Assembly: GCA_045546995.1 (NCBI GenBank)
Contig: JAZQDW010000067.1
Coordinates: 1,864-65,863, forward strand
Origin: Eubacteriales bacterium
Lineage (GTDB): Bacteria > Bacillota > Clostridia > Oscillospirales > QAKW01
Reading direction: 5' to 3'
Length of the DNA: 64,000 nt
Below the pieces are notes generated by a model. That model was not told where the DNA came from and did not search any database. It saw nothing but the letters and a program-made list of their open reading frames with translations. How positions within the stretch are numbered: the stretch's first letter is position 1; each line of letters starts with the position of its first letter. Below are positions 32,488 to 53,770 of this stretch, piece after piece. Both the position numbers and the translations under genes were made by a program.

Positions 32488-32561
32488 CGGAGCAATAACC
32501 GCCTATCTTACCTTGTAATTATGCACAATTTTAAAATGCTTTTCTTGTACACTTTTTCATA

Positions 32562-32590
32562 TTGTATAGGTTGGTAAAATATGGTAAAAT
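32562..32590 (+). promoter_or_regulatory. candidate sigma-A promoter of the leader
   Basis: TTGTAT, 17-nt spacer, TAAAAT, with TGg extended -10. Conserved in the right copy. Confidence 0.55.
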
Positions 32591-32624
32591 AAAATTACAG
32601 AAATCTATGAAAGAGGTGAGCCCC

Positions 32625-32693
32625 ATGGTAATAGACTGTTCCGTGATCGGTTGCAGTTCCTTTCGTGCGGCTCATTTTTCTTTCCACCGGTAG
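32625..32693 (+). CDS. 22-aa small ORF MVIDCSVIGCSSFRAAHFSFHR (leader peptide or small peptide candidate)
   Basis: AAAGAGGTG SD 6 nt upstream. Conserved in the second copy as MAIDCSVIGCSSFRAAHFSFHR. Coding status unproven. Confidence 0.4.
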   Translation: MVIDCSVIGCSSFRAAHFSFHR

Positions 32694-32709
32694 AACCAAA
32701 CAAGCCAAA

Positions 32710-32743
32710 GCGCAAGGGGGCTGTAGCCACCCTTGCGCTTTTT
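32710..32743 (+). terminator. intrinsic terminator between the leader ORF and the rhs gene
   Basis: GCGCAAGGG...CCCTTGCGC stem with inner GGCT/AGCC extension, then T5. The rhs ATG lies 35 nt downstream with no promoter recognised in between. Confidence 0.7.
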
Positions 32744-32777
32744 ACATATTCATTATTGCTTAGAAAGGAGCAAAAAA

Positions 32778-35700
32778 ATGAAAACAAAGTTATGGCTACG
32801 CAGTATTTCTTGGCTTGTTTGTTTACTGCTGATCACTCAATGCTGTACTTTTGCGGTTTCTGCCGAAACGGAAACTGTAGCCACTGAAGCAACAGAAGAG
32901 CCTGTGCAGATCGAAGGCGAGTTGATCCAAAAGCGCACGGCGAATGAAAAATACTTTATGCGCAGTGACCAAAGTATTCTGGCGGCGGTTTATCCGAATG
33001 CCGTTCATTATAAGGACGTGGATGGCACCTGGAAAGAGATCGACAACCGCTTAACTGAATCCACCGATGGTGCAGAGACGGTATTTTCCAACACCGTCAA
33101 TGCGCTGAACGTCAAATTTGCCAAAAAAGCAAAAGATGGTAAGTTGGTGAAGCTTCATTATGAAGATACCAAAATTGCTTGGTACTTAAATGGCGCCGCC
33201 AAAACCACCGCCACCCCATTGGAAAACGACTGGCCGGAGCAAACGGATCCTACGGCAGTGATTGGCAATCAATCCGCCGTCTTATATGAAAATATTTTAC
33301 CGAAAGTAGATCTGGAATATCTGCTCATCGGTGATGAACTGAAGGAAAATATTGTCTTAAAAGACCGCACGGCCATAGGTACCTACACCTTTACCTATGA
33401 AACGGGCGCGCTTACAATGACCCTTTCCGACAATATGATCACTCTTTGGCAAGGGGATAAGGCGGTTCTGTTTTTGAACGCGCCTCTGATGACCGATGCC
33501 GCCGGCAACACAAGTGATGCCATTACGCTTTCTTTGCGGCCGGAAAAGGAAAACGAAAATAATCACGTTTATACGGTTTCCGTCACCCCCGATGCCGAAT
33601 GGCTGAACGCCGCCAGGCGTGTATATCCCGTCAAGGTGGATCCTTCCCTGACCACCGAGCAGACCTATGAAAACATAATGGACACCTACGTCAGCAAGTT
33701 GGCTCCCGGGTCTAATTATACAGATGAGATCACGTTCCGTGTTGGCAAGGATGCATCCACCAATGATGTCTATCGGGCGTTTCTAAAGTTTGATCTTCCC
33801 ACGGATATCGGCGAAAGCGATCGTGTGGTAAATGCTACCCTAAATCTGTATCCCGATCCACGATTGACCCATCTGGATACCCTGAATGCCATGGCATCAC
33901 AGCGTCCCGTGTTGCAGGCGCACGCCGTCCAAGAGACGTGGGCTACAAACGAGATCACGTGGGGCAATCAACCCGAGACGGACAGCGATATGCTGGATTA
34001 TGAGATCGTTGAGGCCAAAAACGGCTCAGAAGATGCCACCCGTTGGTACGGATGGAATATTACCTCCTTGGTGGATGATTGGTATACCTCCGGTGTCAAT
34101 AACGGTGTGATGCTGAAACTGGATAATGAATCCGGTTATACCGGCAATACGGTTGCCAAATTCTGTTCTTCGGAATTTAATTTGCTGGAAGATGATAATT
34201 CAATCGTATTCCCCTTGGTCAGTATTACCTATCTTAATATGCTGGGTCTGGAGGACTATTGGACGTATCATTCTTTGGATGCCGGCGTGGGCGGTACTGC
34301 CTACGTCAATGATTTTACCGGTGGCCTGACGATCGTGACTCCTGTGGCATCGGTAGACAGCGCTCACACGCCGCTGAACGTGTCGCTGGTCTATTCTCCC
34401 GGCTCTAACGATGCAAGCATCAATGCGCTGAACGTGGGCAATCATTTTATGCTCAATCTGCAGTGCTACGTAAAGCCGGTCACGATCGGCGACGTTCAAA
34501 AATATAAATACGTCGATGGGGACGGCACCACCCACTATTTTGCACAAAAAAATAATAAATGGACGGATGAAAGCGGCCAGGACCTGACCCTATCAATGGG
34601 CGACGGATATTATACCATACGGGATAAAAAAGATAATCTCCTGCGCTTTTATGCAGATACCGGCCGCCTGTGTAATATTAAAGACAGCGTGGGCAATAAT
34701 ACCCAATTGTATTATACGGTGGTGAACGGAAAATACTATCTCTCCTCCGTCACCAACGGTACCCACACCATCACCTTTACCCGTGACAGTAACAACCGTT
34801 TGTCGCGCGTGTATTATCCCGATGCCGACGGAACCAACGATCAGCGCTTTGCACAGATCACCTATACGGCATCTAAAAATGGCATTTACCATTTGACACA
34901 ATATATTCAGCAGGGCACCACATTGACCCCGACCCACATCGTCAGCTTCCCCTGTGATCATAACGTGGTCAGTCGGATCATCAGTTGTCCGTATGATGCA
35001 GATCGGGCAGATGGTGCCGCATTAAGCGGAACGGCATTGATCTTCGGTTATACCAACGAAGGGAATCTGTCTGAGCACCGTCGACGTATCACCTCTTATA
35101 AGATGGTGCCTTACGTAAACGGCACCCTGCAATCCAATCAACCGGAATACCATTATGCGGTCACTTATCATCGCAATGCTACGCGTTTTACCTCTCAAAT
35201 TGCAGGAGATAGCGGTGTATTTAGTAATGAACTCTACACCTTTGATGCATTGGGCAGAACACGCTCGGCCCAGGATCAGGACGGCTATGCCACCTATCAG
35301 GAGCACGGCATCAGCGGTGGCGCCAAGAATAAGGTCACCTTTACCTCCGATACACGCCGCCACGTTGCAAATCTTCTGAAAAATCACAGCTTTGAAAAGG
35401 GCGATGCCACCACCCTGACCCAATGGGCAAAAATCGGCAACAGCGGCGATAATGCAGCCATTAAAGGGACTGCCGATAACGAGCCGGTCTTTGTCGGCAC
35501 AAAGGCAATGAAGGTATATAAAAATGATGCCGCCCAAACCGTCAATTCCTCGGTGCGGCAGGCCATTACGCTGACAAAGGGCAAAAAATATACCCTCTCC
35601 GCCTATGTCTACACCGATTTGACCACCCTTTCCACTTCCGGCTATACCGGCGCATTTTTGTGCGTAGAAACGGCGGATTATTCACCCCAGAGCTATTGTC

Positions 35701-38700
35701 ACAATATTATCAGTGACGGCGCTTGGTCACGCCATTTTGTCACCATCGACCTGACCGGGAACGTGGATATGGCAACCAGTGAAACGTTTTACGTTTATCT
35801 TGGTATTGAGCGAGCAAAGGGTGCGGTATATTTTGACGGTGTCCAACTGGAAGAGGGCGGCTCGGTCAATTCCTATAACCTGATCGAAAACGCCGGCTTT
35901 GAGGACAGCACGGACACCGCCTGGATCGGTACCGAGCTGCAAAGCGGCGATGGCCGCACCACCGATTCCTCCCGTGTGGGATACTTCTATAAAATGGTCG
36001 GCAACAGTAAAACGTCCAAAAAGCTGGCCCGGACCGTCACCGTCAGCGGTAAACAGGGCGATGGCATAACGGCAGGTGCCTTTATTCGCAACTTCGGCCT
36101 GCCCAATAAGGATACCTATCATAACGGCACCAAACAGGATTGTGCCATCACGTTGGAAATTTGCCATTCCGACGGTTCCTCCCAATTTGTCACCCAAAGT
36201 GCGGAAAATGAGGTCGATCATTGGCAATACGTTTGCCTGGGAGCTGTTGCCGAGGAGAATTATACACAGCTTAAACTGTATCTAAAGTTCATTTATAACG
36301 GCAATACCGCATATTTTGATGACGTCGGTCTGTATCGGGACACCTTCGGGCAAAGCCTGACCTACGATGAAAAGGGCAACGTTACCACCGTGGTAGATAT
36401 GGCCAATAATACCAAAAACATCATCACCGACGGTAATAACGATATGACCTCCTATACGGACGGCGAGGGCAACGAGTATACCTTCGAGTATGACGGTGGA
36501 AACAGTGCGACGAAAAAGCATCTGCTGACCAAGGTGACCGATCCTTTGGACGATCAAACGGCATATACGTATGATGCAAAGGGCAACGTTACCAAGACCA
36601 CCTTAACGGATGCGGCGGGTAATATGACGATGTCCGCCTCCACCGCCTATACGGCAGATGGACATTACGTTGCAAGTCAGACGGATGCGGCAGGTATGTC
36701 CATTCGTTATAATCGTTCAACCGTGGACGGACGGGTAAATGACGTTCGTGCACCGTTGCCCGACGGTTATGATCTTAAAACTAGTTATACCTACGATCCG
36801 CTTACCAAGGAGACGGTGGGCGTTGAAGTGGCAACCGATATTCCCTACGGTGGCGAACACCGTTCTTTGCCCGCCAACGTAACCTATGCTTATGACCGTG
36901 GCAATTTGACGGATATCGTCCGTAAGGCTGACACAACCAAGCAGATGGGCTATCATATGACCTACGATAACGTTGGCAAACGCACCGGCGTGTATTGGTC
37001 GGGCAAAACCAACACCCAATCGCTGTTGCAATCCGCCACTTATAAAGATTTTGGTGCAGTGGATACCGTTACCTACGGCAATGGCCAAACCTTGTCTTAT
37101 ACCTACAACAACGCAGGCTTGGTCACTGAAAAGGCATATAATAATACGCCGGTGGTAAAATACGACTACAATGCAAACTATGCCCTCGGTGCCGCCGCCT
37201 ATTATCGCCCGGTCAGCAACACCTGGGAGCGTACCAACTACTTTTATGACCTGGCAGGCCGGATCTCCGAAACTAAGGATACCCGCGGTCTCAGCACCGG
37301 CGCCTATTCGTATGATAAAAACAATCGTCTGCTCTCCTATCGGTCGGTCTTGGAGGATGCCCACGTAGATCTTGGGTATACTACGCGCTATACCTATTTG
37401 GCCGATAACACGCTCAAATCCATCTGTCTGGATCCCGATGGCGGATATGAAAGCGGTACGATGCGGTACGGCTATGATGGGATCGGGCGACTGTATATCA
37501 AGAGATTATCGCTGGATAGTATGGACAATTCTTTCAGAATAGACTATACTTATAAGCAGAATGAGGACGGTTCCCGTACCACCCGACCTTCCACTACCTC
37601 TTACAAGGGTATATACAATGGTACCACCGTGGAGGGTTCGTACTACAGCACCTATTATGACGACGGCAAAATTGCCTCTCATCGGGTCATCGATAACAAC
37701 GGTACAAAAACCACGGCATTTGAATATGATGCATTGGGGCAACTTACTTCCACCGATGACGGCACCGACGAATACACCTATTCCTACGATGCCGGTGGCA
37801 ACCTCACCGCAAAAACCTTCACCACTTCGGCAGATGACAGCGATTATACTGCCACCTATACCTACGACAGCAACTTTTCCGACCTGTTGACCGGATATGC
37901 CAAAACCGAGGACGGTGTCACCACCACCCGCACCTATAATTATACTGCGAGCAATGGTACCAAATTTGTCAATCCCGTTTCCATTACCGAAACCAACGGC
38001 ACCACCAGCAGTGTGATGCAGCTTGGTTGGCGGCAGGGCCGGACGTTGGAAAGCATTACCACCGATGCCGGTACCGTTCGCTATGAGTACAATGAAAACG
38101 GTCAGCGTATTTTGCGACAACTGGTCAACGGCGCCAAACGGGAATACTATTACAACGGCACGCAGTTGGAGTATATCAAGATCCTTACGGCGGCGGGTAA
38201 CCTGACAAGCACGATGCGTTATATTTATAATGCAAACGGTCAGGCGGAATATATTCTGTACATTACCAAAGGCAATGCAAAAACTCCCGCGGCCTACAAC
38301 CTGTACTACATTCTGCGAGATAACACGGGCGTGATCCAAAAGCTCATCAAGGTGCGCGCGGCAAGTTCTACCTCTGTCACCCCCACCTTGTCCGTGGCAG
38401 TGGAATATAAGTACGACCCCTACGGTAAGCTTCTGTCTATCACCAAGGCCAGCGGCGAGAGCGTTGGCACCTACAACCCCCTCGTTTATAAGGACTATAT
38501 CTGGGACAGCGAGACTGATTGGTACTACTGCAACAGCCGTTATTACGATCCCGAAACGGGCAGATGGATCAATGCGGATGCATATTTAACTACGGAACAA
38601 AGTATTACCGATACCAATATGTTTTTGTATTGCGGAAATAATCCTGTTCTTTTTGAAGATGCTAGTGGAAATAGGTACGCTGTTTCCGCTTCGCAAATAG

Positions 38701-39188
38701 AAGACGAAACATGGGAGGAGAGAGGCTATTCATGTGATCATATGAATAAGCAAAGTGGTCGTGGGCTCAATCCATCCCACAGAGAAGAACTTCCGACAGG
38801 AGAACGACTCATATATTATACAGTTGGAAACAGCAAGGTTGTTACACCGAAATCTTTAGGAAAAAATACAATTATTATCAAGGATGTGAGAAATAATAGC
38901 CTTGACCCAGGAAATGCAAATATGCAAATTGTAGATTCGTACAAATACACTCGTCGTCAAAATGAATTAAGGATTAATATTCTTAATAGTATGCTACATT
39001 ATTGCCAAAGAGTTCCAAATTCCGGTAATGGATGGATTAGAAGTGTTCCATCGATGCTGTGGGAGTGGGATTTGCACAATTTGGCACACGACTTGTATCT
39101 TAAGCGATCAAGTAGCGGAAGCGTTGATCTTGATAATAAATCAGAAGATTGGGGGATCATTCAACATATATGGTACGCAATTTCTTGA
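32778..39188 (+). CDS. Rhs/YD-repeat polymorphic toxin, Sec-signal, WapA-like (2136 aa)
   Basis: Signal peptide MKTKLWLRSISWLVCLLLITQCCTFAVSA. DNRLRE-like and two CBM-like regions. Many YD repeats (YxYDxxGN/R). Core end ...RYYDPETGRWINAD...LYCGNNPVLFEDASG, followed by a 170-aa unassigned AT-rich tip. Confidence 0.9.
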   Translation: MKTKLWLRSISWLVCLLLITQCCTFAVSAETETVATEATEEPVQIEGELIQKRTANEKYFMRSDQSILAAVYPNAVHYKDVDGTWKEIDNRLTESTDGAETVFSNTVNALNVKFAKKAKDGKLVKLHYEDTKIAWYLNGAAKTTATPLENDWPEQTDPTAVIGNQSAVLYENILPKVDLEYLLIGDELKENIVLKDRTAIGTYTFTYETGALTMTLSDNMITLWQGDKAVLFLNAPLMTDAAGNTSDAITLSLRPEKENENNHVYTVSVTPDAEWLNAARRVYPVKVDPSLTTEQTYENIMDTYVSKLAPGSNYTDEITFRVGKDASTNDVYRAFLKFDLPTDIGESDRVVNATLNLYPDPRLTHLDTLNAMASQRPVLQAHAVQETWATNEITWGNQPETDSDMLDYEIVEAKNGSEDATRWYGWNITSLVDDWYTSGVNNGVMLKLDNESGYTGNTVAKFCSSEFNLLEDDNSIVFPLVSITYLNMLGLEDYWTYHSLDAGVGGTAYVNDFTGGLTIVTPVASVDSAHTPLNVSLVYSPGSNDASINALNVGNHFMLNLQCYVKPVTIGDVQKYKYVDGDGTTHYFAQKNNKWTDESGQDLTLSMGDGYYTIRDKKDNLLRFYADTGRLCNIKDSVGNNTQLYYTVVNGKYYLSSVTNGTHTITFTRDSNNRLSRVYYPDADGTNDQRFAQITYTASKNGIYHLTQYIQQGTTLTPTHIVSFPCDHNVVSRIISCPYDADRADGAALSGTALIFGYTNEGNLSEHRRRITSYKMVPYVNGTLQSNQPEYHYAVTYHRNATRFTSQIAGDSGVFSNELYTFDALGRTRSAQDQDGYATYQEHGISGGAKNKVTFTSDTRRHVANLLKNHSFEKGDATTLTQWAKIGNSGDNAAIKGTADNEPVFVGTKAMKVYKNDAAQTVNSSVRQAITLTKGKKYTLSAYVYTDLTTLSTSGYTGAFLCVETADYSPQSYCHNIISDGAWSRHFVTIDLTGNVDMATSETFYVYLGIERAKGAVYFDGVQLEEGGSVNSYNLIENAGFEDSTDTAWIGTELQSGDGRTTDSSRVGYFYKMVGNSKTSKKLARTVTVSGKQGDGITAGAFIRNFGLPNKDTYHNGTKQDCAITLEICHSDGSSQFVTQSAENEVDHWQYVCLGAVAEENYTQLKLYLKFIYNGNTAYFDDVGLYRDTFGQSLTYDEKGNVTTVVDMANNTKNIITDGNNDMTSYTDGEGNEYTFEYDGGNSATKKHLLTKVTDPLDDQTAYTYDAKGNVTKTTLTDAAGNMTMSASTAYTADGHYVASQTDAAGMSIRYNRSTVDGRVNDVRAPLPDGYDLKTSYTYDPLTKETVGVEVATDIPYGGEHRSLPANVTYAYDRGNLTDIVRKADTTKQMGYHMTYDNVGKRTGVYWSGKTNTQSLLQSATYKDFGAVDTVTYGNGQTLSYTYNNAGLVTEKAYNNTPVVKYDYNANYALGAAAYYRPVSNTWERTNYFYDLAGRISETKDTRGLSTGAYSYDKNNRLLSYRSVLEDAHVDLGYTTRYTYLADNTLKSICLDPDGGYESGTMRYGYDGIGRLYIKRLSLDSMDNSFRIDYTYKQNEDGSRTTRPSTTSYKGIYNGTTVEGSYYSTYYDDGKIASHRVIDNNGTKTTAFEYDALGQLTSTDDGTDEYTYSYDAGGNLTAKTFTTSADDSDYTATYTYDSNFSDLLTGYAKTEDGVTTTRTYNYTASNGTKFVNPVSITETNGTTSSVMQLGWRQGRTLESITTDAGTVRYEYNENGQRILRQLVNGAKREYYYNGTQLEYIKILTAAGNLTSTMRYIYNANGQAEYILYITKGNAKTPAAYNLYYILRDNTGVIQKLIKVRAASSTSVTPTLSVAVEYKYDPYGKLLSITKASGESVGTYNPLVYKDYIWDSETDWYYCNSRYYDPETGRWINADAYLTTEQSITDTNMFLYCGNNPVLFEDASGNRYAVSASQIEDETWEERGYSCDHMNKQSGRGLNPSHREELPTGERLIYYTVGNSKVVTPKSLGKNTIIIKDVRNNSLDPGNANMQIVDSYKYTRRQNELRINILNSMLHYCQRVPNSGNGWIRSVPSMLWEWDLHNLAHDLYLKRSSSGSVDLDNKSEDWGIIQHIWYAIS

Positions 39189-39994
39189 AAACCGCGTTTT
39201 CGGCGGTCAACATTATTTTGTATATAGTACTGATGCTTCCATTGATAGCATTTCCGATCCTTTTGTTCTTTCCCTATATATTTGAAGCAAACCTGTACTT
39301 TTCAACCATCTATTACTATCTGCTATCAGGACAGATCGAACTCTTTTTGCTTTTGGTTATTTTACTGCTGTTCTTTTTTATAAAAATCATTCGTCGGGAA
39401 AAAGTTTATTATTTATTCTCATCGCTGTTGCTGATAGCAAATTGCATTTTTGACGTTTTGACTTGGAACAAACCATTGCACGCGGTTGGAATTATCGTCA
39501 AACTGTTGATTGCGATCTCATTTTTTGTTGAAGGATGGAGGGCGCGCGGAGATTATTTCTCAAAGCACAGGAAAAACTTGCGTTTTTCTGTTTGTTGGGG
39601 TAGTGTGTTGTTTTTTGCCGGCTTTTTGCAATATATGTTGCTGAAATTTGAGCAAGGTCCCATTCTCATTTTTGCGGTCGCCATCTTATTTGTTGTCGGA
39701 CAAGCAATTTGGTTCATCTGTCAGCACATGTCCGCAAGGGATGTTGGTTACATTTGGCTTGGCTCGACATTTGTATGGGGGCTCCTTTCTTCTTGGTTAT
39801 CGTTGCTGCTGTATAAGCCGTTTCCATATTGGTTTGATGTTTCCGAAGATTATATGAATGAAAAATTTTGGCCGTTTTTTGTTTTCCAAATCCTTCATTT
39901 GGTAACAATGGGCATTGTGTGGTGCATCAAGGCAAGAGGCGGTTCTAAGAAAACAGAAAGAAATAACACAGGGGACGATTCTCTTGTCTCCTGA
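39170..39994 (+). CDS. polytopic membrane protein, putative cognate immunity protein
   Basis: Overlaps the rhs stop by 19 nt. AT-rich like the toxin tip. About 8 hydrophobic segments. Start choice uncertain (TTG 39149, ATG 39170 or ATG 39233). Confidence 0.55.
   Translation: MVRNFLKTAFSAVNIILYIVLMLPLIAFPILLFFPYIFEANLYFSTIYYYLLSGQIELFLLLVILLLFFFIKIIRREKVYYLFSSLLLIANCIFDVLTWNKPLHAVGIIVKLLIAISFFVEGWRARGDYFSKHRKNLRFSVCWGSVLFFAGFLQYMLLKFEQGPILIFAVAILFVVGQAIWFICQHMSARDVGYIWLGSTFVWGLLSSWLSLLLYKPFPYWFDVSEDYMNEKFWPFFVFQILHLVTMGIVWCIKARGGSKKTERNNTGDDSLVS
39967..39991 (+). repeat. REP-like element (degenerate core GGGGACGATTCT, mixed arms)
   Basis: cacaGGGGACGATTCTcttgtctcc. Supplies the last codons and the stop of the immunity gene. 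Confidence 0.7.
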
Positions 39995-40052
39995 CCTGTT
40001 GACCGGCTATGCTAAAACCGAGGGCGGTGTCACCCCCACCTTGTCCGTGGCA
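39993..40052 (+). pseudogene. orphan rhs fragment A
   Basis: Matches rhs 37881..37922 joined to 38382..38399 at a shared GTCACC, equivalent to an in-frame 459-bp deletion. Ends at a REP-like element. Confidence 0.8.
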
Positions 40053-40063
40053 AATTGCAAGGG

Positions 40064-40088
40064 AACACAGGGGACGGTTCTGTGTGTT
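40064..40088 (+). repeat. REP-like element, stem version 2 (ACACAG/CTGTGT)
   Basis: aacacagGGGACGGTTCTgtgtgtt. Confidence 0.8.
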
Positions 40089-40089
40089 G

Positions 40090-40249
40090 ACGGGCGTGAT
40101 CCAAAAGCTCATCAAGGTGCGGGCGGCAAGCTCTACCTCGGTCACCCCCACCTTGTCCGTGGCGGTGGAATATAAGTACGACCCCTACGGTAAGCTTCTG
40201 TCTATCACCAAGGCCAGCGGCGAGAGTGTGGGCACCTACAACCCCCTCG
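40090..40249 (+). pseudogene. orphan rhs fragment B
   Basis: 160 bp matching rhs 38325..38484 with 6 mismatches by hand alignment. Homology stops exactly at the next REP-like element. Confidence 0.85.
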
Positions 40250-40281
40250 GGGGGGACAAGGGGACGGTTCTCTTGTCCCCC
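40249..40281 (+). repeat. REP-like element, stem version 1 (GGGGGACAAG/CTTGTCCCCC)
   Basis: gggggggacaagGGGACGGTTCTcttgtccccc. Confidence 0.85.
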
Positions 40282-40330
40282 GGCTCCTTAACAAACGGAA
40301 ATACAACAAATAGCTTTGGTGTAAAATTGC

Positions 40331-40368
40331 AACACAGGGGACCAACACAGGGGACGGTTCTATGTGTT
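40331..40368 (+). repeat. REP-like element, version 2, with a partial 5' duplication
   Basis: aacacaggggacc then aacacagGGGACGGTTCTatgtgtt. The 3' flank runs into the -35 of the RAYT-like gene. Confidence 0.8.
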
Positions 40369-40395
40369 GACGATTTTAGTTTGCTATGTTACAAT
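40367..40395 (+). promoter_or_regulatory. candidate promoter of the RAYT-like gene 1
   Basis: TTGACG, 17-nt spacer, TACAAT, with TGt extended -10. The -35 overlaps the end of the REP-like element. Confidence 0.55.
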
Positions 40396-40412
40396 CAAAT
40401 TGGTGATGCGAT

Positions 40413-41159
40413 ATGCCAAGACAGGCGAGACAGAAAAGCGAAAGCAGAATCTACCATGTAATGCTTCGCGGAATCAATCAACAACAAATTTTTGAGGATT
40501 CAGAAGATTATGATAAGTTCCTCAATATTATGAAAGACTGTAAGGCAATATGCGAATTTAAGCTATTTGCATATTGCCTTATGAGAAATCATATTCATTT
40601 ACTTATTAAAGAGTGCAAAGAGCCGTTGGAACAAATATTTAAACGAATCTGCGGACGATTTGTATACTGGTATAATATCAAGTACCGACGTACAGGCCAC
40701 TTGTTTCAGGATCGTTTTAAAAGCGAGCCGGTGGATTCGGAGAAGTATTTCTTCACCGTACTGCGCTATATCCACCAAAACCCTACCAAGGCAGGTATTT
40801 GTAAGTGTGTTGAGGACTATGCCTACAGCAGTTATTCGGAATATACTGGTATAAGCAGACTTGTTGACACAGAATATGTTTGGGCACTGACTACGCTTGA
40901 AGATTTTGTTGGCCTTAATCATGAAACAGTTGACACGCCCTGTTTGGATGTTTCCGAGAAAGTCATTGCGCGCGTAACGGACGAACAAGCAAGAGCAATC
41001 ATCAAAAAGATCGCGCGGTGTGACAACGTTTCGGATTTCCAAAACTTAGATCTTGTGACCAGGGATAAATGTTTGAAAAAGTTTAGAGACAAAGGAATTT
41101 CAATCAGACAGCTAAGCAGATTAACGGGCATCAGTTTTAGTATTGTGAGAAAATTCTAA
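40413..41159 (+). CDS. RAYT-type (IS200-like Y1/HUH) transposase-like protein with C-terminal HTH
   Basis: HUH motif NHIHLLI. Tyr motif LRYIHQNP. GHLFQDRFKS. C-terminal GISIRQLSRLTGIS helix-turn-helix. Confidence 0.8.
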   Translation: MPRQARQKSESRIYHVMLRGINQQQIFEDSEDYDKFLNIMKDCKAICEFKLFAYCLMRNHIHLLIKECKEPLEQIFKRICGRFVYWYNIKYRRTGHLFQDRFKSEPVDSEKYFFTVLRYIHQNPTKAGICKCVEDYAYSSYSEYTGISRLVDTEYVWALTTLEDFVGLNHETVDTPCLDVSEKVIARVTDEQARAIIKKIARCDNVSDFQNLDLVTRDKCLKKFRDKGISIRQLSRLTGISFSIVRKF

Positions 41160-41399: not shown

Positions 41400-41461
41400 G
41401 GGACAGTTCTTTGCCTCGGAAAAACTTAAACAGGGGGACAAGGGGACGGTTTTCTTGTCTC
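41400..41461 (+). repeat. direct-repeat copy 1 (gggacagttctttgcctcggaaaaacttaaacaggg) fused to a version-1 REP-like element
   Basis: 36-nt block repeated at 42577..42612 with 1 mismatch. REP gggggacaagGGGACGGTTTTcttgtctc at 41433..41461. Confidence 0.75.
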
Positions 41462-42572: not shown

Positions 42573-42639
42573 CAATGGGACAGTTCTTTGCCTCGGGAAA
42601 ACTTAAACAGGGCGGGAGATTTTCTCCCGCCCTGTTTTT
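42573..42639 (+). repeat. direct-repeat copy 2 plus terminator hairpin; left copy of the nested inverted repeat (partner 50712..50782)
   Basis: gggacagttctttgcctcgggaaaacttaaaCAGGGCGGGAGAttttTCTCCCGCCCTGttttt. The hairpin works as a bidirectional terminator for the lipoprotein and nitroreductase genes. Confidence 0.8.
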
Positions 42640-47097: not shown

Positions 47098-47173
47098 TGG
47101 TGGGAGTAACAGGACTCGAACCTGTGACCCCTTGCACGTCAAGCAAGTGCTCTACCAGCTGAGCTATACTTCC
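47098..47173 (-). tRNA. tRNA-Val (anticodon GAC), with encoded CCA
   Basis: Cloverleaf read by eye. Anticodon loop TTGACGT. GTTCGAGTC T-loop. One A3:C70 mismatch in the acceptor stem. Confidence 0.8.
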
Positions 47174-47188
47174 ATTTTGTACTATGTT

Positions 47189-47216
47189 ATTATATCACAC
47201 TTTTTTGAAAATGCAA
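47189..47216 (-). promoter_or_regulatory. candidate separate promoter for tRNA-Val(GAC)
   Basis: On the minus strand: TTGCAT, 16-nt spacer, TATAAT, with TGa extended -10. Confidence 0.45.
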
Positions 47217-47295
47217 TACCTTTTTTAAAAAAGTGATCGAAAGTCGCTGTATCGCCTGCGGCGAGACAGCTCTGCGCGAACTGCAGACTGCGACC

Positions 47296-47333
47296 AAAAG
47301 AAAAAGCATCCCGATAGGGATGCTTTTTCTTTT
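47296..47333 (-). terminator. long hairpin terminator after the three-tRNA unit
   Basis: AAAAGAAAAAGCATCCC gata GGGATGCTTTTTCTTTT, a 17-bp stem. Confidence 0.6.
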
Positions 47334-47408
47334 GGTGGAAGTTACAGGGCTCGAACCTGTGACCCTCTGCTTGTAAGGCAGATGCTCTCCCAGCTGAGCT
47401 AAACTTCC
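47333..47408 (-). tRNA. tRNA-Val (anticodon TAC), with encoded CCA
   Basis: Perfect acceptor stem GGAAGTT/AACTTCC. Anticodon loop CTTACAA. Confidence 0.85.
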
Positions 47409-47416
47409 GTGGGATA

Positions 47417-47491
47417 TGGTGACCCGGACGGGAATCGAACCCGTGTTACCGCCGTGAAAGGGCGGTGTCTTAACCGCTTGACCACCGGGCC
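47417..47491 (-). tRNA. tRNA-Glu (anticodon TTC), with encoded CCA
   Basis: GGCCCGGTGGTCAAGCGGTTAAGAC...CTTTCAC anticodon loop...GGTTCGATTCC. Confidence 0.85.
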
Positions 47492-47495
47492 AAAA

Positions 47496-47572
47496 TGGTA
47501 GCGGCAGCGGGATTCGAACCTGCGACCAATCGGGTATGAACCGAGTACTCTAGCCAACTGAGCTATGCCGCC
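47496..47572 (-). tRNA. tRNA-Met (anticodon CAT, elongator-like), with encoded CCA
   Basis: GGCGGCATAGCTCAGTTGGCTAGAG...TTCATAC anticodon loop. Lacks the initiator features. Confidence 0.8.
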
Positions 47573-51340: not shown

Positions 51341-51400
51341 GCAAGGGACAAGGGAGGGACAAGAGGACAGAGGGACAAGGGGACGGTTCTCTTGTCCCCC
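51341..51400 (+). repeat. REP-like element (version 1) with an iterated GGGACAAG 5' arm
   Basis: gcaagggacaagggagggacaagaggacagagggacaagGGGACGGTTCTcttgtccccc. Confidence 0.8.
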
Positions 51401-51513: not shown

Positions 51514-51545
51514 GGGGAGACAAGGGGACGGTTCTCTTGTCTCCT
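51514..51545 (+). repeat. REP-like element (version 1)
   Basis: ggggagacaagGGGACGGTTCTcttgtctcc followed by T7. Lies 5 nt from the RAYT-like gene 2 stop. Confidence 0.85.
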
Positions 51546-51549
51546 TTTT

Positions 51550-52293
51550 TTAAATGTTTGATTCTACAATTTTCTTAGAAATACCAGTTAATCGAGCAAT
51601 TTGCCTTATCGATAAACCTTTGTTATGCAATTTGCTAATATAGAAATTACGTTTTTCTTTATCAAGTTTTTGAAAATCTGCTGCTGTCTTACATTTTGTG
51701 CTTTTCAATATAATCGTTTTTGCTTCAGCATCTGTCAAGCGATAATGTTCATCCATTTCTAAACAATTATCCGCATTTTCTTCTCTGTGATACTCAATAA
51801 ATTGATCCTTCGTAATCATCGAAAGAGCAAAACTTGTATCAACAAAAACCGGAGTTCCTAAATATTCTTTTATGCTACTGTTGGCGTATTCCTCTGCCTT
51901 TATGCATATCCCTGCCTTCACAGGATTCTGATGAATATACCGCAACACCGTGAGAAAATAGCTATCATCCTCAACAGGTTCACTCTTGAATCGATCCTGA
52001 AACAAATGTCCACAGCGGTGATATTTCCAGTTATACCAATAAACATAACTCCCGGCAATTCGTTTAAATATGGCGCTTAATTCTTCTGCGCCTTCTCGCA
52101 ACAGAATATGTATATGATTCCCCATCAAGCAATACGCATATACTGTATATCCGCATAATTCCTTATATAGGGCAAGTGTTTCAACAAATCTTTGACAATC
52201 TTCTCCATCCTCAAATATCTGTTGACGATTGATTCCTCTCAATATTATGTGGTATATTCCACTATCGCTCTTTTTTCGTGCTTGACGTGGCAT
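51550..52293 (-). CDS. RAYT-type (IS200-like Y1/HUH) transposase-like protein with C-terminal HTH, diverged paralog
   Basis: NHIHILL, LRYIHQNP, GHLFQDRFKS, GLSIRQIARLTGIS. N-terminal domain about 64% identical to the 40413..41159 product by hand alignment, C-terminal part lower. Confidence 0.8.
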   Translation of the reverse strand: MPRQARKKSDSGIYHIILRGINRQQIFEDGEDCQRFVETLALYKELCGYTVYAYCLMGNHIHILLREGAEELSAIFKRIAGSYVYWYNWKYHRCGHLFQDRFKSEPVEDDSYFLTVLRYIHQNPVKAGICIKAEEYANSSIKEYLGTPVFVDTSFALSMITKDQFIEYHREENADNCLEMDEHYRLTDAEAKTIILKSTKCKTAADFQKLDKEKRNFYISKLHNKGLSIRQIARLTGISKKIVESNI

Positions 52294-52310
52294 AACTATC
52301 ACCCAATTTG

Positions 52311-52345: not shown

Positions 52346-52435
52346 GGGGACAAGAGAACCGTCCCCTTGTCTCCCAGAGAACCGTCCCCTTGTCTCCCGA
52401 GAAAAAGGGGACAAGAGAACCGTCCCCTTGTCTCC
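52346..52435 (-). repeat. three REP-like elements (version 1) in inverted orientation
   Basis: Complement cores AGAACCGTCCCC at 52355, 52378 and 52416. On the minus strand two of them read as hairpin plus T5. Confidence 0.85.
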
Positions 52436-52737: not shown

Positions 52738-53079
52738 CTATGTCTTTTCGTTTTGACTTGACCATCCGCATTGATCACAACAAATCACATTGTTTCGCAT
52801 GGTGACAGTACCAAATAAAATGCGCGTCGTTCCCAAAGTAACACGTTCCTTTTGTGGGTCAGCCAAATGTTTGTGCCATACTTTATGCGTTTTGGCACCG
52901 CAATTCGGACAAACTTTAAATCGACGTTCAAAAAGTATATGTTGAACAAAGATCGTAATTGCAATCATCACAAATAAAACTCCAGCCGCAATGATGGATG
53001 CTTTAAGTCCGAAAACTTGTTTAATAATGCCCAAAATCACGAACATAAATAATGGAAATAGTAGTTTGTTGTTCTTCAT
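52738..53079 (-). CDS. small membrane protein with C-terminal zinc ribbon (113 aa)
   Basis: Two hydrophobic helices then CPNCG...CDQCG. AT-rich. Confidence 0.55.
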   Translation of the reverse strand: MKNNKLLFPLFMFVILGIIKQVFGLKASIIAAGVLFVMIAITIFVQHILFERRFKVCPNCGAKTHKVWHKHLADPQKERVTLGTTRILFGTVTMRNNVICCDQCGWSSQNEKT

Positions 53080-53088
53080 TGGAAACTA

Positions 53089-53388
53089 TCACTCCTCAGA
53101 TTCTATGTTCTTCTTTTGCCAGCGTATAAGTGCATAACTCATAGAAAGAAAGCAGAAATATGTTGTAATCATGAATACGATGGGCATCTCCGGAAATCGG
53201 TGATTTAAAATTGCATGTACGATTATTGCGGGAATCATATGTAAAAAAGTATAACCAATAGATCCCCACCATAGTTTAAAACTTTTATGGGGATAATATA
53301 TATAATTGTACAGCCAAACAAAAAGACTAAAAATATGAATAATTGGTATCCACATAATTTTCTTTTGCGTACTAATCGAAATTTTCAT
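53089..53388 (-). CDS. small polytopic membrane protein (99 aa)
   Basis: ATG 53388 after GAGGAGAAAAG. The track N-extension is a translated REP element. Confidence 0.55.
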   Translation of the reverse strand: MKISISTQKKIMWIPIIHIFSLFVWLYNYIYYPHKSFKLWWGSIGYTFLHMIPAIIVHAILNHRFPEMPIVFMITTYFCFLSMSYALIRWQKKNIESEE

Positions 53389-53402: not shown

Positions 53403-53429
53403 GAGACAAGGGGACGGTTCTCTTGTCCC
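53403..53429 (+). repeat. REP-like element (version 1) between the right leader and the first gene
   Basis: gagacaagGGGACGGTTCTcttgtccc. Confidence 0.85.
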
Positions 53430-53440
53430 ATAATAAAAAC

Positions 53441-53668
53441 AATATGTAAAAAGCGCAAGGGTGGCTACAGCCCCTTGCGCTTTGGCTTGTTTGGTTCTAC
53501 CGGTGGAAAGAAAAATGAGCCGCACGAAAGGAACTGCAACCGATCACGGAACAGTCTATTGCCATGAGACCCACCTCTTTCATAGATTTCTGTAATTTTA
53601 TTTTACCATATTTCACCAACCTATACAATATGAAAAAGTATACAAAAAAGACATTTTGAAATTGTGCA
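53441..53668 (-). repeat. leader module, right copy of the ~229-bp inverted repeat
   Basis: See 32522..32750. Promoter equivalents at 53600..53628, terminator at 53448..53480. Confidence 0.9.
53497..53565 (-). CDS. 22-aa small ORF MAIDCSVIGCSSFRAAHFSFHR (second copy)
   Basis: Same SD and spacing as the left copy. One amino-acid difference (V2A). Confidence 0.4.
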   Translation of the reverse strand: MAIDCSVIGCSSFRAAHFSFHR

Positions 53669-53770
53669 CTATTGCACGGTTGTTTTGGCACAGAACAACG
53701 AAAAATGATGACGTTGCGCCAGATGTATATCCTCGCCGTTTTTGCGCAAACTAACTTACGGGGTGAAAAA

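Follow-up and report, generated by a model that had tools for sequence, protein, structure and literature searches.

The stretch analysed here, 64,000 nucleotides (nt) of a Eubacteriales contig that we call the window, carries on its forward strand a gene, rhs, for a 2136-amino-acid Rhs protein with a signal peptide, RHS repeats and a C-terminal toxin, and the segment under study (positions 32562–32777) lies directly ahead of it. Read from the sequence, a control unit of ~240 nt stands before rhs, consisting of a promoter, a small open reading frame (ORF) held within a long RNA hairpin, termed P1, and a strong terminator (Table 1). The elements listed in the original prediction made on this DNA, namely a promoter, a Shine–Dalgarno (SD) sequence, a 22-codon ORF, a 16-nt spacer between its stop codon and a hairpin, a run of five T residues (T5) and the ATG of rhs, were all found where it had placed them. 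An inverted copy of the whole unit precedes two small membrane-protein genes further along the window; we refer to the rhs side as the left arm or copy and to the inverted side as the right.

With the Rhs N-terminus as query, a homologue search gave a leader family of four copies in three lineages. Besides the two copies in the window, it includes one in each of two metagenome-assembled genomes (MAGs), L001 (Eubacteriales; Rhs identity 55% at the amino-acid level) and L010 (Clostridia; 64%), where the leader again stands directly before rhs, with nhmmer E-values of 1e-77 and 1e-80, respectively, and shows promoter, SD, ATG, an ORF of 22–23 codons and terminator at equivalent places. The upstream genes differ, being rhamnose-catabolism genes with their own terminator in L010 and genes for an enolase and a Clp-like protease in the window, which indicates that the leader travels with rhs and not with the neighbourhood. 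Since homologous leaders precede Rhs orthologues in these different neighbourhoods, the unit is not a chance arrangement. The window shares 76–78% identity with L001 and L010 in the leader and 69–70% over the first 900 nt of rhs; between L001 and L010 these values are 87% and 93–96%, and the leader differences fall mostly in the P1–terminator linker and in the terminator loop. An nhmmer profile of the four copies found no further copies in the window or in all retrieved homologue DNA.

The promoter comprises TTGTAT (32562–32567) and TAAAAT (32585–32590) on either side of a 17-nt spacer, with the TG of an extended −10 element at 32582–83, and transcription would start at about 32597–32599; the leader RNA measures ~146 nt. 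A consensus promoter scan does not list this site, whose −35 element matches at three of six positions, and we call it a promoter because of the extended −10 element together with positional conservation in L001 (TTGCAA-17-TGgTAAACT) and L010 (TGgTAAGAT); in the alignment, the promoter block AAATATGGTAA..T is identical in all four copies. The right-arm unit must use its own promoter, as no co-directional gene lies upstream of it and it is divergent from the neighbouring gene on the + strand. Three of the four copies, the two in the window and that of L010, also share a ~40-nt block 5′ of the −35 element (GTGCACAATTTCAAAATG..TTCTTGTATACTTTTTCATA), which may be an operator or UP element adding control at initiation.

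The terminator, AAAGCGCAAGGGGGCU-GUAG-CCACCCUUGCGC followed by U5, is made up of a hairpin at 32710–32738 and T5 at 32739–32743. Its stem (GCGCAAGGG/CCCUUGCGC) is unchanged in all four copies and its loop is variable; a simple terminator scan misses it on account of one bulge. The rhs ATG lies 34 nt past T5, and a promoter scan found no + strand promoter-like site in the intervening 32744–32777, a stretch that the alignment shows not to be conserved among homologues, nor was there one on the − strand at 53447–53389, behind the right copy. This agrees with the earlier suggestion that rhs lacks a promoter behind the terminator and needs read-through. In all four copies, the unit immediately precedes a gene that has no other promoter.

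The SD is strongly complementary to the 3′ end of 16S rRNA. Each of the four copies retains SD and ATG together with an uninterrupted frame, which spans 22, 22, 22 and 23 codons, while stops occur in both remaining frames. The four leader peptides (MVIDCSVIGCSSFRAAHFSFHR, MAIDCSVIGCSSFRAAHFSFHR, MAIDCSFKSYSSLRAAHFPLNR and MAIDCFFKSYRSLRATHFSLNQL) are far less constant. Between the window and L001, three codon changes are synonymous and nine non-synonymous, with differences at the three codon positions numbering 4/3/9, and between L001 and L010, the two closest relatives, four changes are non-synonymous and none synonymous, in addition to a shifted stop. The conserved parts of the peptide, M-A/V-I-D-C and S-F/L-R-A-A/T-H-F, coincide with the strands of the P1 stem, so that pairing in the RNA accounts for them no less well than coding. 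Cys5 (UGU) is the only cysteine kept in all four peptides, Cys10 being Tyr in L001 and L010, and an R/K-x-R/K arrest motif (for example RLR) occurs in none of the four. The original prediction had described a Cys-containing ORF: SD, start and open frame are retained in the homologous leaders, but the peptide is weakly constrained and cysteine is not conserved beyond codon 5. The importance of the ORF most likely lies in offering ribosomes a landing site, its product being irrelevant, and, because the peptide is poorly conserved and keeps only one Cys, peptide sequence and Cys sensing are probably not the point.

A functional peptide, either a signalling peptide or the precursor of a peptide made by ribosomes and modified after translation (RiPP), whose transcript the terminator merely ends, would account for the retention of ORF, SD and start in three lineages. 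We consider this extremely improbable: divergence between close relatives is fast and exclusively non-synonymous, length and C-terminus shift, no gene for a modification enzyme, exporter or receptor lies nearby, and the ORF lies inside a hairpin by which its own SD is blocked.

This hairpin, P1, has a folding energy of −35 kcal/mol (z = −4.5; −2.0 to −2.6 in the homologues), and RNAalifold retains both P1 and the terminator across the four copies. Double changes affect four P1 pairs, which lie at its base and in the apical stem, where CUUU/AAAG replaces CCG/CGG, and an unpaired AAUAGA is invariant across copies. The SD is paired inside P1 via several G-U pairs; its previously proposed pairing with a downstream strand is real (32669–32685), but it is just the base of the 90-nt P1, which that proposal had not described.

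In upper P1, the 3′ side (CGGUUGCAGUUCCUUUCGUGCG) can alternatively pair with the terminator 5′ arm and loop (32710–32729), which would double as the 3′ strand of an antiterminator. In the left copy, this duplex has 19 base pairs (bp) and −30.2 kcal/mol, a value reached by 0/500 shuffled upstream sequences; the corresponding figures are −28.0 kcal/mol and 1/500 in the right copy, −24.1 kcal/mol and 1/500 in L010, and −17.0 kcal/mol and 53/500 in L001. Across the four copies, 89% of the antiterminator cells are paired, compared with 38–50% when the partner is slid. The antiterminator helix thus appears conserved as a possibility, which covariation does not prove. P1, antiterminator and terminator are mutually exclusive, with P1 containing the antiterminator strand. 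A different alternative put forward earlier, pairing of AGCCCC with GGGGCU in the terminator, can form in all four copies (5–6 bp); however, it is the minimum-energy pairing only under one set of conditions described below, and the main alternative is the 19-bp helix 32648–32669/32710–32729.

Helices identical to those of the attenuator model developed below would also serve a ribosome-independent riboregulator, in which P1 senses a small ligand, a protein, a small RNA or temperature, its stabilization or opening decides between terminator and antiterminator, and the ORF is incidental. The peptide is weakly constrained, as the exclusively non-synonymous changes between L001 and L010 (0 against 4) attest, the apical stem stays paired though its amino acids change completely, AAUAGA is invariant although unpaired, and the SD is held by a run of G-U/A-U pairs with a U-rich strand, as in fourU-type thermosensors, which hold the SD in this way. 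A single long irregular hairpin would nevertheless be an unusual ligand pocket, no Rfam family matches, and no gene for an RNA-binding antiterminator (BglG, ANTAR or PyrR type) lies within the arms; moreover, the invariant strong SD with its perfectly spaced ATG, which survives alone in another Rhs relative, L011, is more easily explained by ribosome use. On balance, we think a riboregulator of this kind unlikely. Sites for a BglG-type ribonucleic antiterminator, ANTAR or PyrR were considered separately and rejected, as no resemblance to their consensus sequences held up when judged by eye and no such regulator gene is nearby.

The comparison with Rfam (release 15) that the original prediction had proposed leaves the leader unclassified, as it had suspected: no family matched at the gathering threshold, in the whole window or in E-value mode on both copies, L001 and L010. 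The best sub-threshold matches, rli28 (24 bits; threshold 45) and Atu_C9 (23 bits; threshold 40), cover promoter and terminator parts only, and the search of the L001 and L010 leaders gave nothing.

In every fold of the full-length RNA without a ribosome, P1 plus terminator is the minimum-energy state, by 15–20 kcal/mol. This is what one would expect of a constitutive terminator without any switch, which would yield a stable sRNA (small RNA) of ~146 nt or damp transcription, a fixed small fraction of read-through giving low-level toxin and immunity. Promoter, hairpin and terminator are the layout of an sRNA gene too, and rli80, a Listeria leader, was originally catalogued as an sRNA (PMC6310831). 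Such a terminator leaves unexpected the 19-bp complementarity between the P1 3′ side and the terminator, matched by only 0–1/500 shuffles in three copies, as well as the placement of the unit directly before a gene without other promoter in all four, and we judge this explanation distinctly unlikely.

The balance shifts when the terminator 3′ arm has not yet been made: the antiterminator state then equals or beats the P1 state, with free-energy differences (ΔΔG) of −3.5 to −11.8 kcal/mol, the right copy showing the largest (−11.8) and the left copy −6.0 kcal/mol. We simulated a ribosome as a 27-nt footprint mask at a given P-site codon, with the terminator 3′ arm absent. With the footprint at codons 1–5, the antiterminator is the minimum-energy fold in both window copies and in L010, and in L001 at codons 1–2; at codons 19–22 it is again the minimum-energy fold. 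At codons 12–18, the terminator arm pairs with nt 25–33 instead, which is the AGCCCC:GGGGCU pairing, and at codons 6–11 it is left partnerless in the left copy and nearly so in L010. These folds suggest that any ribosome opening P1 would tend to favour read-through, and that its absence would tend to give termination. The original prediction had placed a ribosome at the ORF end against the left arm of the terminator; such a ribosome would instead end ~4–7 nt short of the stem.

The same masks bear on a classical cysteine attenuator, in which a ribosome awaiting Cys-tRNA at codon 5, with codon 4 in the P site, would free the antiterminator. P-site codon 4 does fall within the antiterminator-permitting window of codons, and the UGU at codon 5 is kept in all four copies. 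Known amino-acid attenuators, however, use runs of the sensed codon, whereas a single Cys codon is conserved here and codon 10 encodes Tyr in L001 and L010; the cargo has no relation to cysteine, and Firmicutes mostly use T-boxes for amino-acid sensing. We therefore hold cysteine attenuation to be very improbable.

We tentatively propose that 32562–32777 is a promoter plus a ~146-nt leader acting as a ribosome-occupancy-dependent transcription attenuator of the rhs operon, a reading to which we give somewhat less than an even chance; its inverted twin would do likewise for the orphan immunity cluster. P1 would be transcribed first, locking the antiterminator strand away, after which the terminator would form and RNA polymerase would halt at ~32743, the default OFF state. 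A ribosome loaded on the SD, at the start or first few codons, would leave P1 unable to close, and one late in the ORF has the same effect in the folds; the freed strand would then capture the terminator 5′ arm and transcription would continue into rhs. What the switch would sense is whether ribosomes occupy the leader ORF or stall on it, which could reflect translation-inhibiting stress or the degree of transcription–translation coupling, the peptide sequence being irrelevant to it. This model builds on the directly observed anatomy, three-lineage conservation, unusual stability of P1, antiterminator and terminator, and lack of any other promoter, to which it would add conditional termination, translation of the ORF and an inducing signal. 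The candidate attenuator of the original prediction gains support from the conservation before Rhs in two other MAGs and from the unusual antiterminator alternative.

Several points weigh against an attenuator. The family comprises only three independent lineages, and the closest Rhs relatives, L009 and L011 (49–52% amino-acid identity), are without the terminator, which suggests that the switch is dispensable for this Rhs family. Weak peptide conservation leaves translation of the ORF undemonstrated, and the chance probability of a 22-codon open frame is not small. The antiterminator lacks compensatory double changes, 12 of its 19 pairs never vary, and in L001 it is weak by the shuffling test given above. 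Footprint masks approximate a kinetic process only crudely, by thermodynamics. Once the RNA is complete, P1 buries the SD, so ribosome loading is limited to the ~55 nt of transcription before P1 closes, and RNA polymerase in Firmicutes often moves ahead of the translating ribosome unless it pauses; a TTNTTT pause motif is present at 32678–32683, but by eye it is not at the same position in L001 or L010 and is thus not positionally conserved.

Beyond the four copies, the Rhs relatives L009, L011 and L014 (37–52% identity) have no leader terminator, and L011 alone keeps the SD–ATG block. There, ahead of a 49%-identical Rhs, the leader is reduced to the block GAAAGAGGTGAGACCGATGG (L011:658-752). 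Its ATG (L011:674) shares the frame of the annotated rhs start (749), no stop separates the two, and a terminator is absent; the arrangement may represent an Rhs extended at its N-terminus or a leader ORF that has become fused. In the L015 and L016 neighbourhoods, genes abut the match and leave no leader-sized gap. Searches further afield gave no match for the exact apical-hairpin 21-mer in 185k species genomes, for the two-block pattern AAAGAGGTG-N40-60-GCGGCTCATTTT in viral contigs, or by blastn in 'distant' mode against plasmids and phages; the two-block pattern had five matches in JGI metagenomes, all of them chance matches without leader features.

Among characterized systems, the closest parallels lie in two leaders demonstrated experimentally, that of vmlR in B. 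subtilis, where an upstream ORF (uORF) sits in an anti-antiterminator hairpin followed by antiterminator and terminator (PMC9226507), and rli80-hflXr (lmo0762) in Listeria, with the same attenuator architecture (PMC6310831). As in vmlR, the promoter-proximal hairpin (SL-1 in vmlR, the anti-antiterminator) holds the SD and start of the uORF, the peptide sequence would be largely irrelevant, and, as we propose for the Rhs leader, a ribosome at the uORF start would open the hairpin so that the antiterminator forms and the terminator just 5′ of the gene is bypassed. The vmlR uORF, however, has 3 codons against 22–23, its leader has a NusG-dependent pause hairpin and a second hairpin sequestering the main-gene SD, neither of which is evident in the Rhs leader, its cargo is an antibiotic-resistance ABCF protein and not an Rhs toxin with immunity genes, and Rfam and nhmmer show no sequence homology between the two. 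With rli80-hflXr and the related bmrB-bmrCD and msrD leaders, the Rhs leader has in common a constitutively transcribed short RNA ending at a terminator, and a small ORF (14 amino acids in rli80) that overlaps the anti-antiterminator; antiterminator and terminator exclude each other, and stalled ribosomes induce read-through, which for the Rhs leader is proposed only. Those peptides carry a drug-specific arrest motif (RLR) that the four peptides here lack, and their cargo is a resistance gene.

More distantly, the Rhs leader follows the 1:2, 2:3 and 3:4 region logic of the trp, his and leu attenuators, with a leader ORF running through regions 1 and 2 and with no translation and complete translation both favouring the terminator; it differs in having no run of regulatory codons and no biosynthetic cargo, and attenuators of this type are rare in Firmicutes. 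Riboswitches and other Rfam cis-regulatory leaders likewise place a terminator-type expression platform in a 5′ leader, but the Rhs leader has neither an Rfam 15 match nor the multi-helix junction typical of aptamers. In silico, the Rhs leader appears to show all the computationally testable features of ribosome-dependent attenuators, and we rate it as a new, very small family (three lineages) within a known regulator type, its cargo being unusual.

The right copy is 94% identical to the left over 241 nt (left 32510-32750, right 53680-53441), and its ORF carries the change V2A. In the SD–ATG segment, the copies differ by the transitions A32619G, C32621T, C32623T and T32630C, the substitutions in AGCCCC having been described as transitions earlier too, and two of the four convert Watson–Crick pairs of P1 to G-U. 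These transitions weaken P1, from −35.0 kcal/mol on the left (32600-32697, +) to −31.5 kcal/mol on the right (53493-53590, −), and the right terminator is shortened by one missing G; by these energies, leakage may be greater in the immunity arm than in the toxin arm. An invertible promoter was rejected as an explanation of the inverted repeat, as each arm has a complete promoter and inversion would change nothing.

As originally predicted, the right copy stands before immunity-like genes. Besides the two small membrane-protein genes, the right unit takes in a second RAYT-like gene and a further ORF. The 99-residue product of the first gene is 68% identical to P0010, which is encoded directly 3′ of a 2150-residue Rhs in L012, and window positions 53400-52762 (−) are colinear with L012:3989-4629. 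Given this homologue and the colinear DNA, the right arm looks like an Rhs-less derivative: by sequence, it appears to be an Rhs locus minus exactly the rhs ORF, with orphan immunity genes left behind the attenuator. A REP (repetitive extragenic palindromic) sequence lies exactly at the right-arm junction, joining the leader to the two small genes. Exact-protein look-ups of the Clp-like protein, the 99-residue protein and P0009 returned no record.

The leader may further be a competition sensor, in which ribosome stalling, caused by ribosome-targeting antibiotics or an incoming translation-blocking toxin, induces the Rhs weapon together with the orphan immunity bank, the weaker right P1 making immunity leakier than toxin; we regard this extension as quite doubtful. 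MAI, with Ala as its penultimate residue, provides a context for ribosome arrest by chloramphenicol and linezolid, and lincosamides and pleuromutilins trap ribosomes at start codons; it is speculation only that these drugs matter here, both sets of arrest positions lying within the antiterminator-permitting window. If true, the range of attenuators that sense antibiotics would reach beyond resistance genes to loci of interbacterial warfare.

Little is known of the regulation of Gram-positive Rhs/WapA-type polymorphic toxins, and in the literature we found no report of an attenuator or leader ORF ahead of an Rhs gene. Were the attenuator confirmed, ribosome occupancy of the leader would control toxin expression in these gut Clostridia at a stage after initiation, the orphan immunity genes would respond to the same signal as the toxin, and stress would be linked to a weapon. 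The claim is a modest one, as leader-ORF attenuators are common in Firmicutes and this family was found in three uncultured lineages only.

Table 1. Features of the two arms in the window (strand + is the forward strand).
Feature	Position	Strand	Remarks
Conserved block upstream of −35	32522–32561 (left copy); 53668–53629 (right copy); L010:3735-3775	+ (left copy); − (right copy)	From the alignment; left copy, right copy and L010
Promoter, TTGTAT, 17-nt spacer, TGgTAAAAT	32562–32590	+	Sequence and conservation
P1, long imperfect hairpin (90 nt)	32604–32694	+	Encloses SD, ATG and whole small ORF; proposed anti-antiterminator
SD, AAAGAGGTG	32610–32618	+	GAGG-to-ATG spacing 8 nt; invariant in 4/4 copies, kept in L011
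Small ORF, MVIDCSVIGCSSFRAAHFSFHR, 22 codons	32625–32693	+	ATG at 32625, TAG at 32691–32693
Antiterminator 5′ strand, CGGUUGCAGUUCCUUUCGUGCG	32648–32669	+	3′ side of upper P1; pairs with 32710–32729
Intrinsic terminator	32707–32743	+	Fold −26.5 kcal/mol, z = −4.9
rhs	32778–39188	+	2136 amino acids; SD AAAGGAG at 32764–32770
REP-like copies	39972–39990, 40261–40279, 41443–41461, 51380–51398, 51525–51543, 52347–52365, 52408–52426, 53411–53429		
Terminator shared by far ends of both arms	42600–42634; 50749–50715	+; −	Each transcription unit ends here
Two small membrane-protein genes (99 and 113 amino acids)	52738–53388	−	Behind right copy; orphan-immunity-like
Inverted copy of whole unit	53441–53680	−	Promoter 53628–53600, SD 53580–53572, ORF 53565–53497 (MAIDCSVIGCSSFRAAHFSFHR), terminator 53483–53448

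The left unit continues from rhs through a gene for a multi-pass membrane protein, likely the immunity protein, an orphan rhs C-terminal fragment, a RAYT-like Y1 transposase gene and a lipoprotein-like gene. A 160-nt direct repeat (96% identity; 38325-38484 and 40090-40249) shows the end of the rhs core duplicated before the orphan fragment (ORF 40009-40461), which is itself interrupted by a REP element; repeat and orphan fragment are the usual trace of displaced Rhs toxin tips. At their far ends the arms share a 63-nt inverted repeat (89%; 42577-42639 and 50775-50713) made of half a REP and an intrinsic terminator (AAACAGGGCGGGAGATTTTCTCCCGCCCTGTTTTT), and, with the same start and end modules, the two arms are paralogous transcription units.

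The REP-like palindrome, GGGACAAGAGAACCGTCCC(CTTGTC), occurs in eight copies, where none is expected by chance, all within the two arms, and the copies flank two Y1_Tnp (RAYT-like) genes at 40413-41159 (+) and 51550-52302 (−); the sequence suggests that this Clostridia genome has a REP/RAYT system. The presence of Y1 transposase genes in both arms had prompted us to consider the leader as a mobile-element end (IS200/RAYT), which was rejected on two grounds: the repeats tied to these genes are the short REP palindromes rather than the leader, and in the MAGs it is rhs that the leader accompanies. The window is chromosomal, from an uncultured organism of Clostridia type, with genes for enolase, a Clp-like protease and ABC transporters, tRNAs and a Gut-1 RNA. 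Four tRNA genes are clustered at 47101-47572 (−), and the Gut-1 RNA (Rfam RF01706; 57638-57708, −) scores 59 bits, above threshold, which points to a gut-associated organism.

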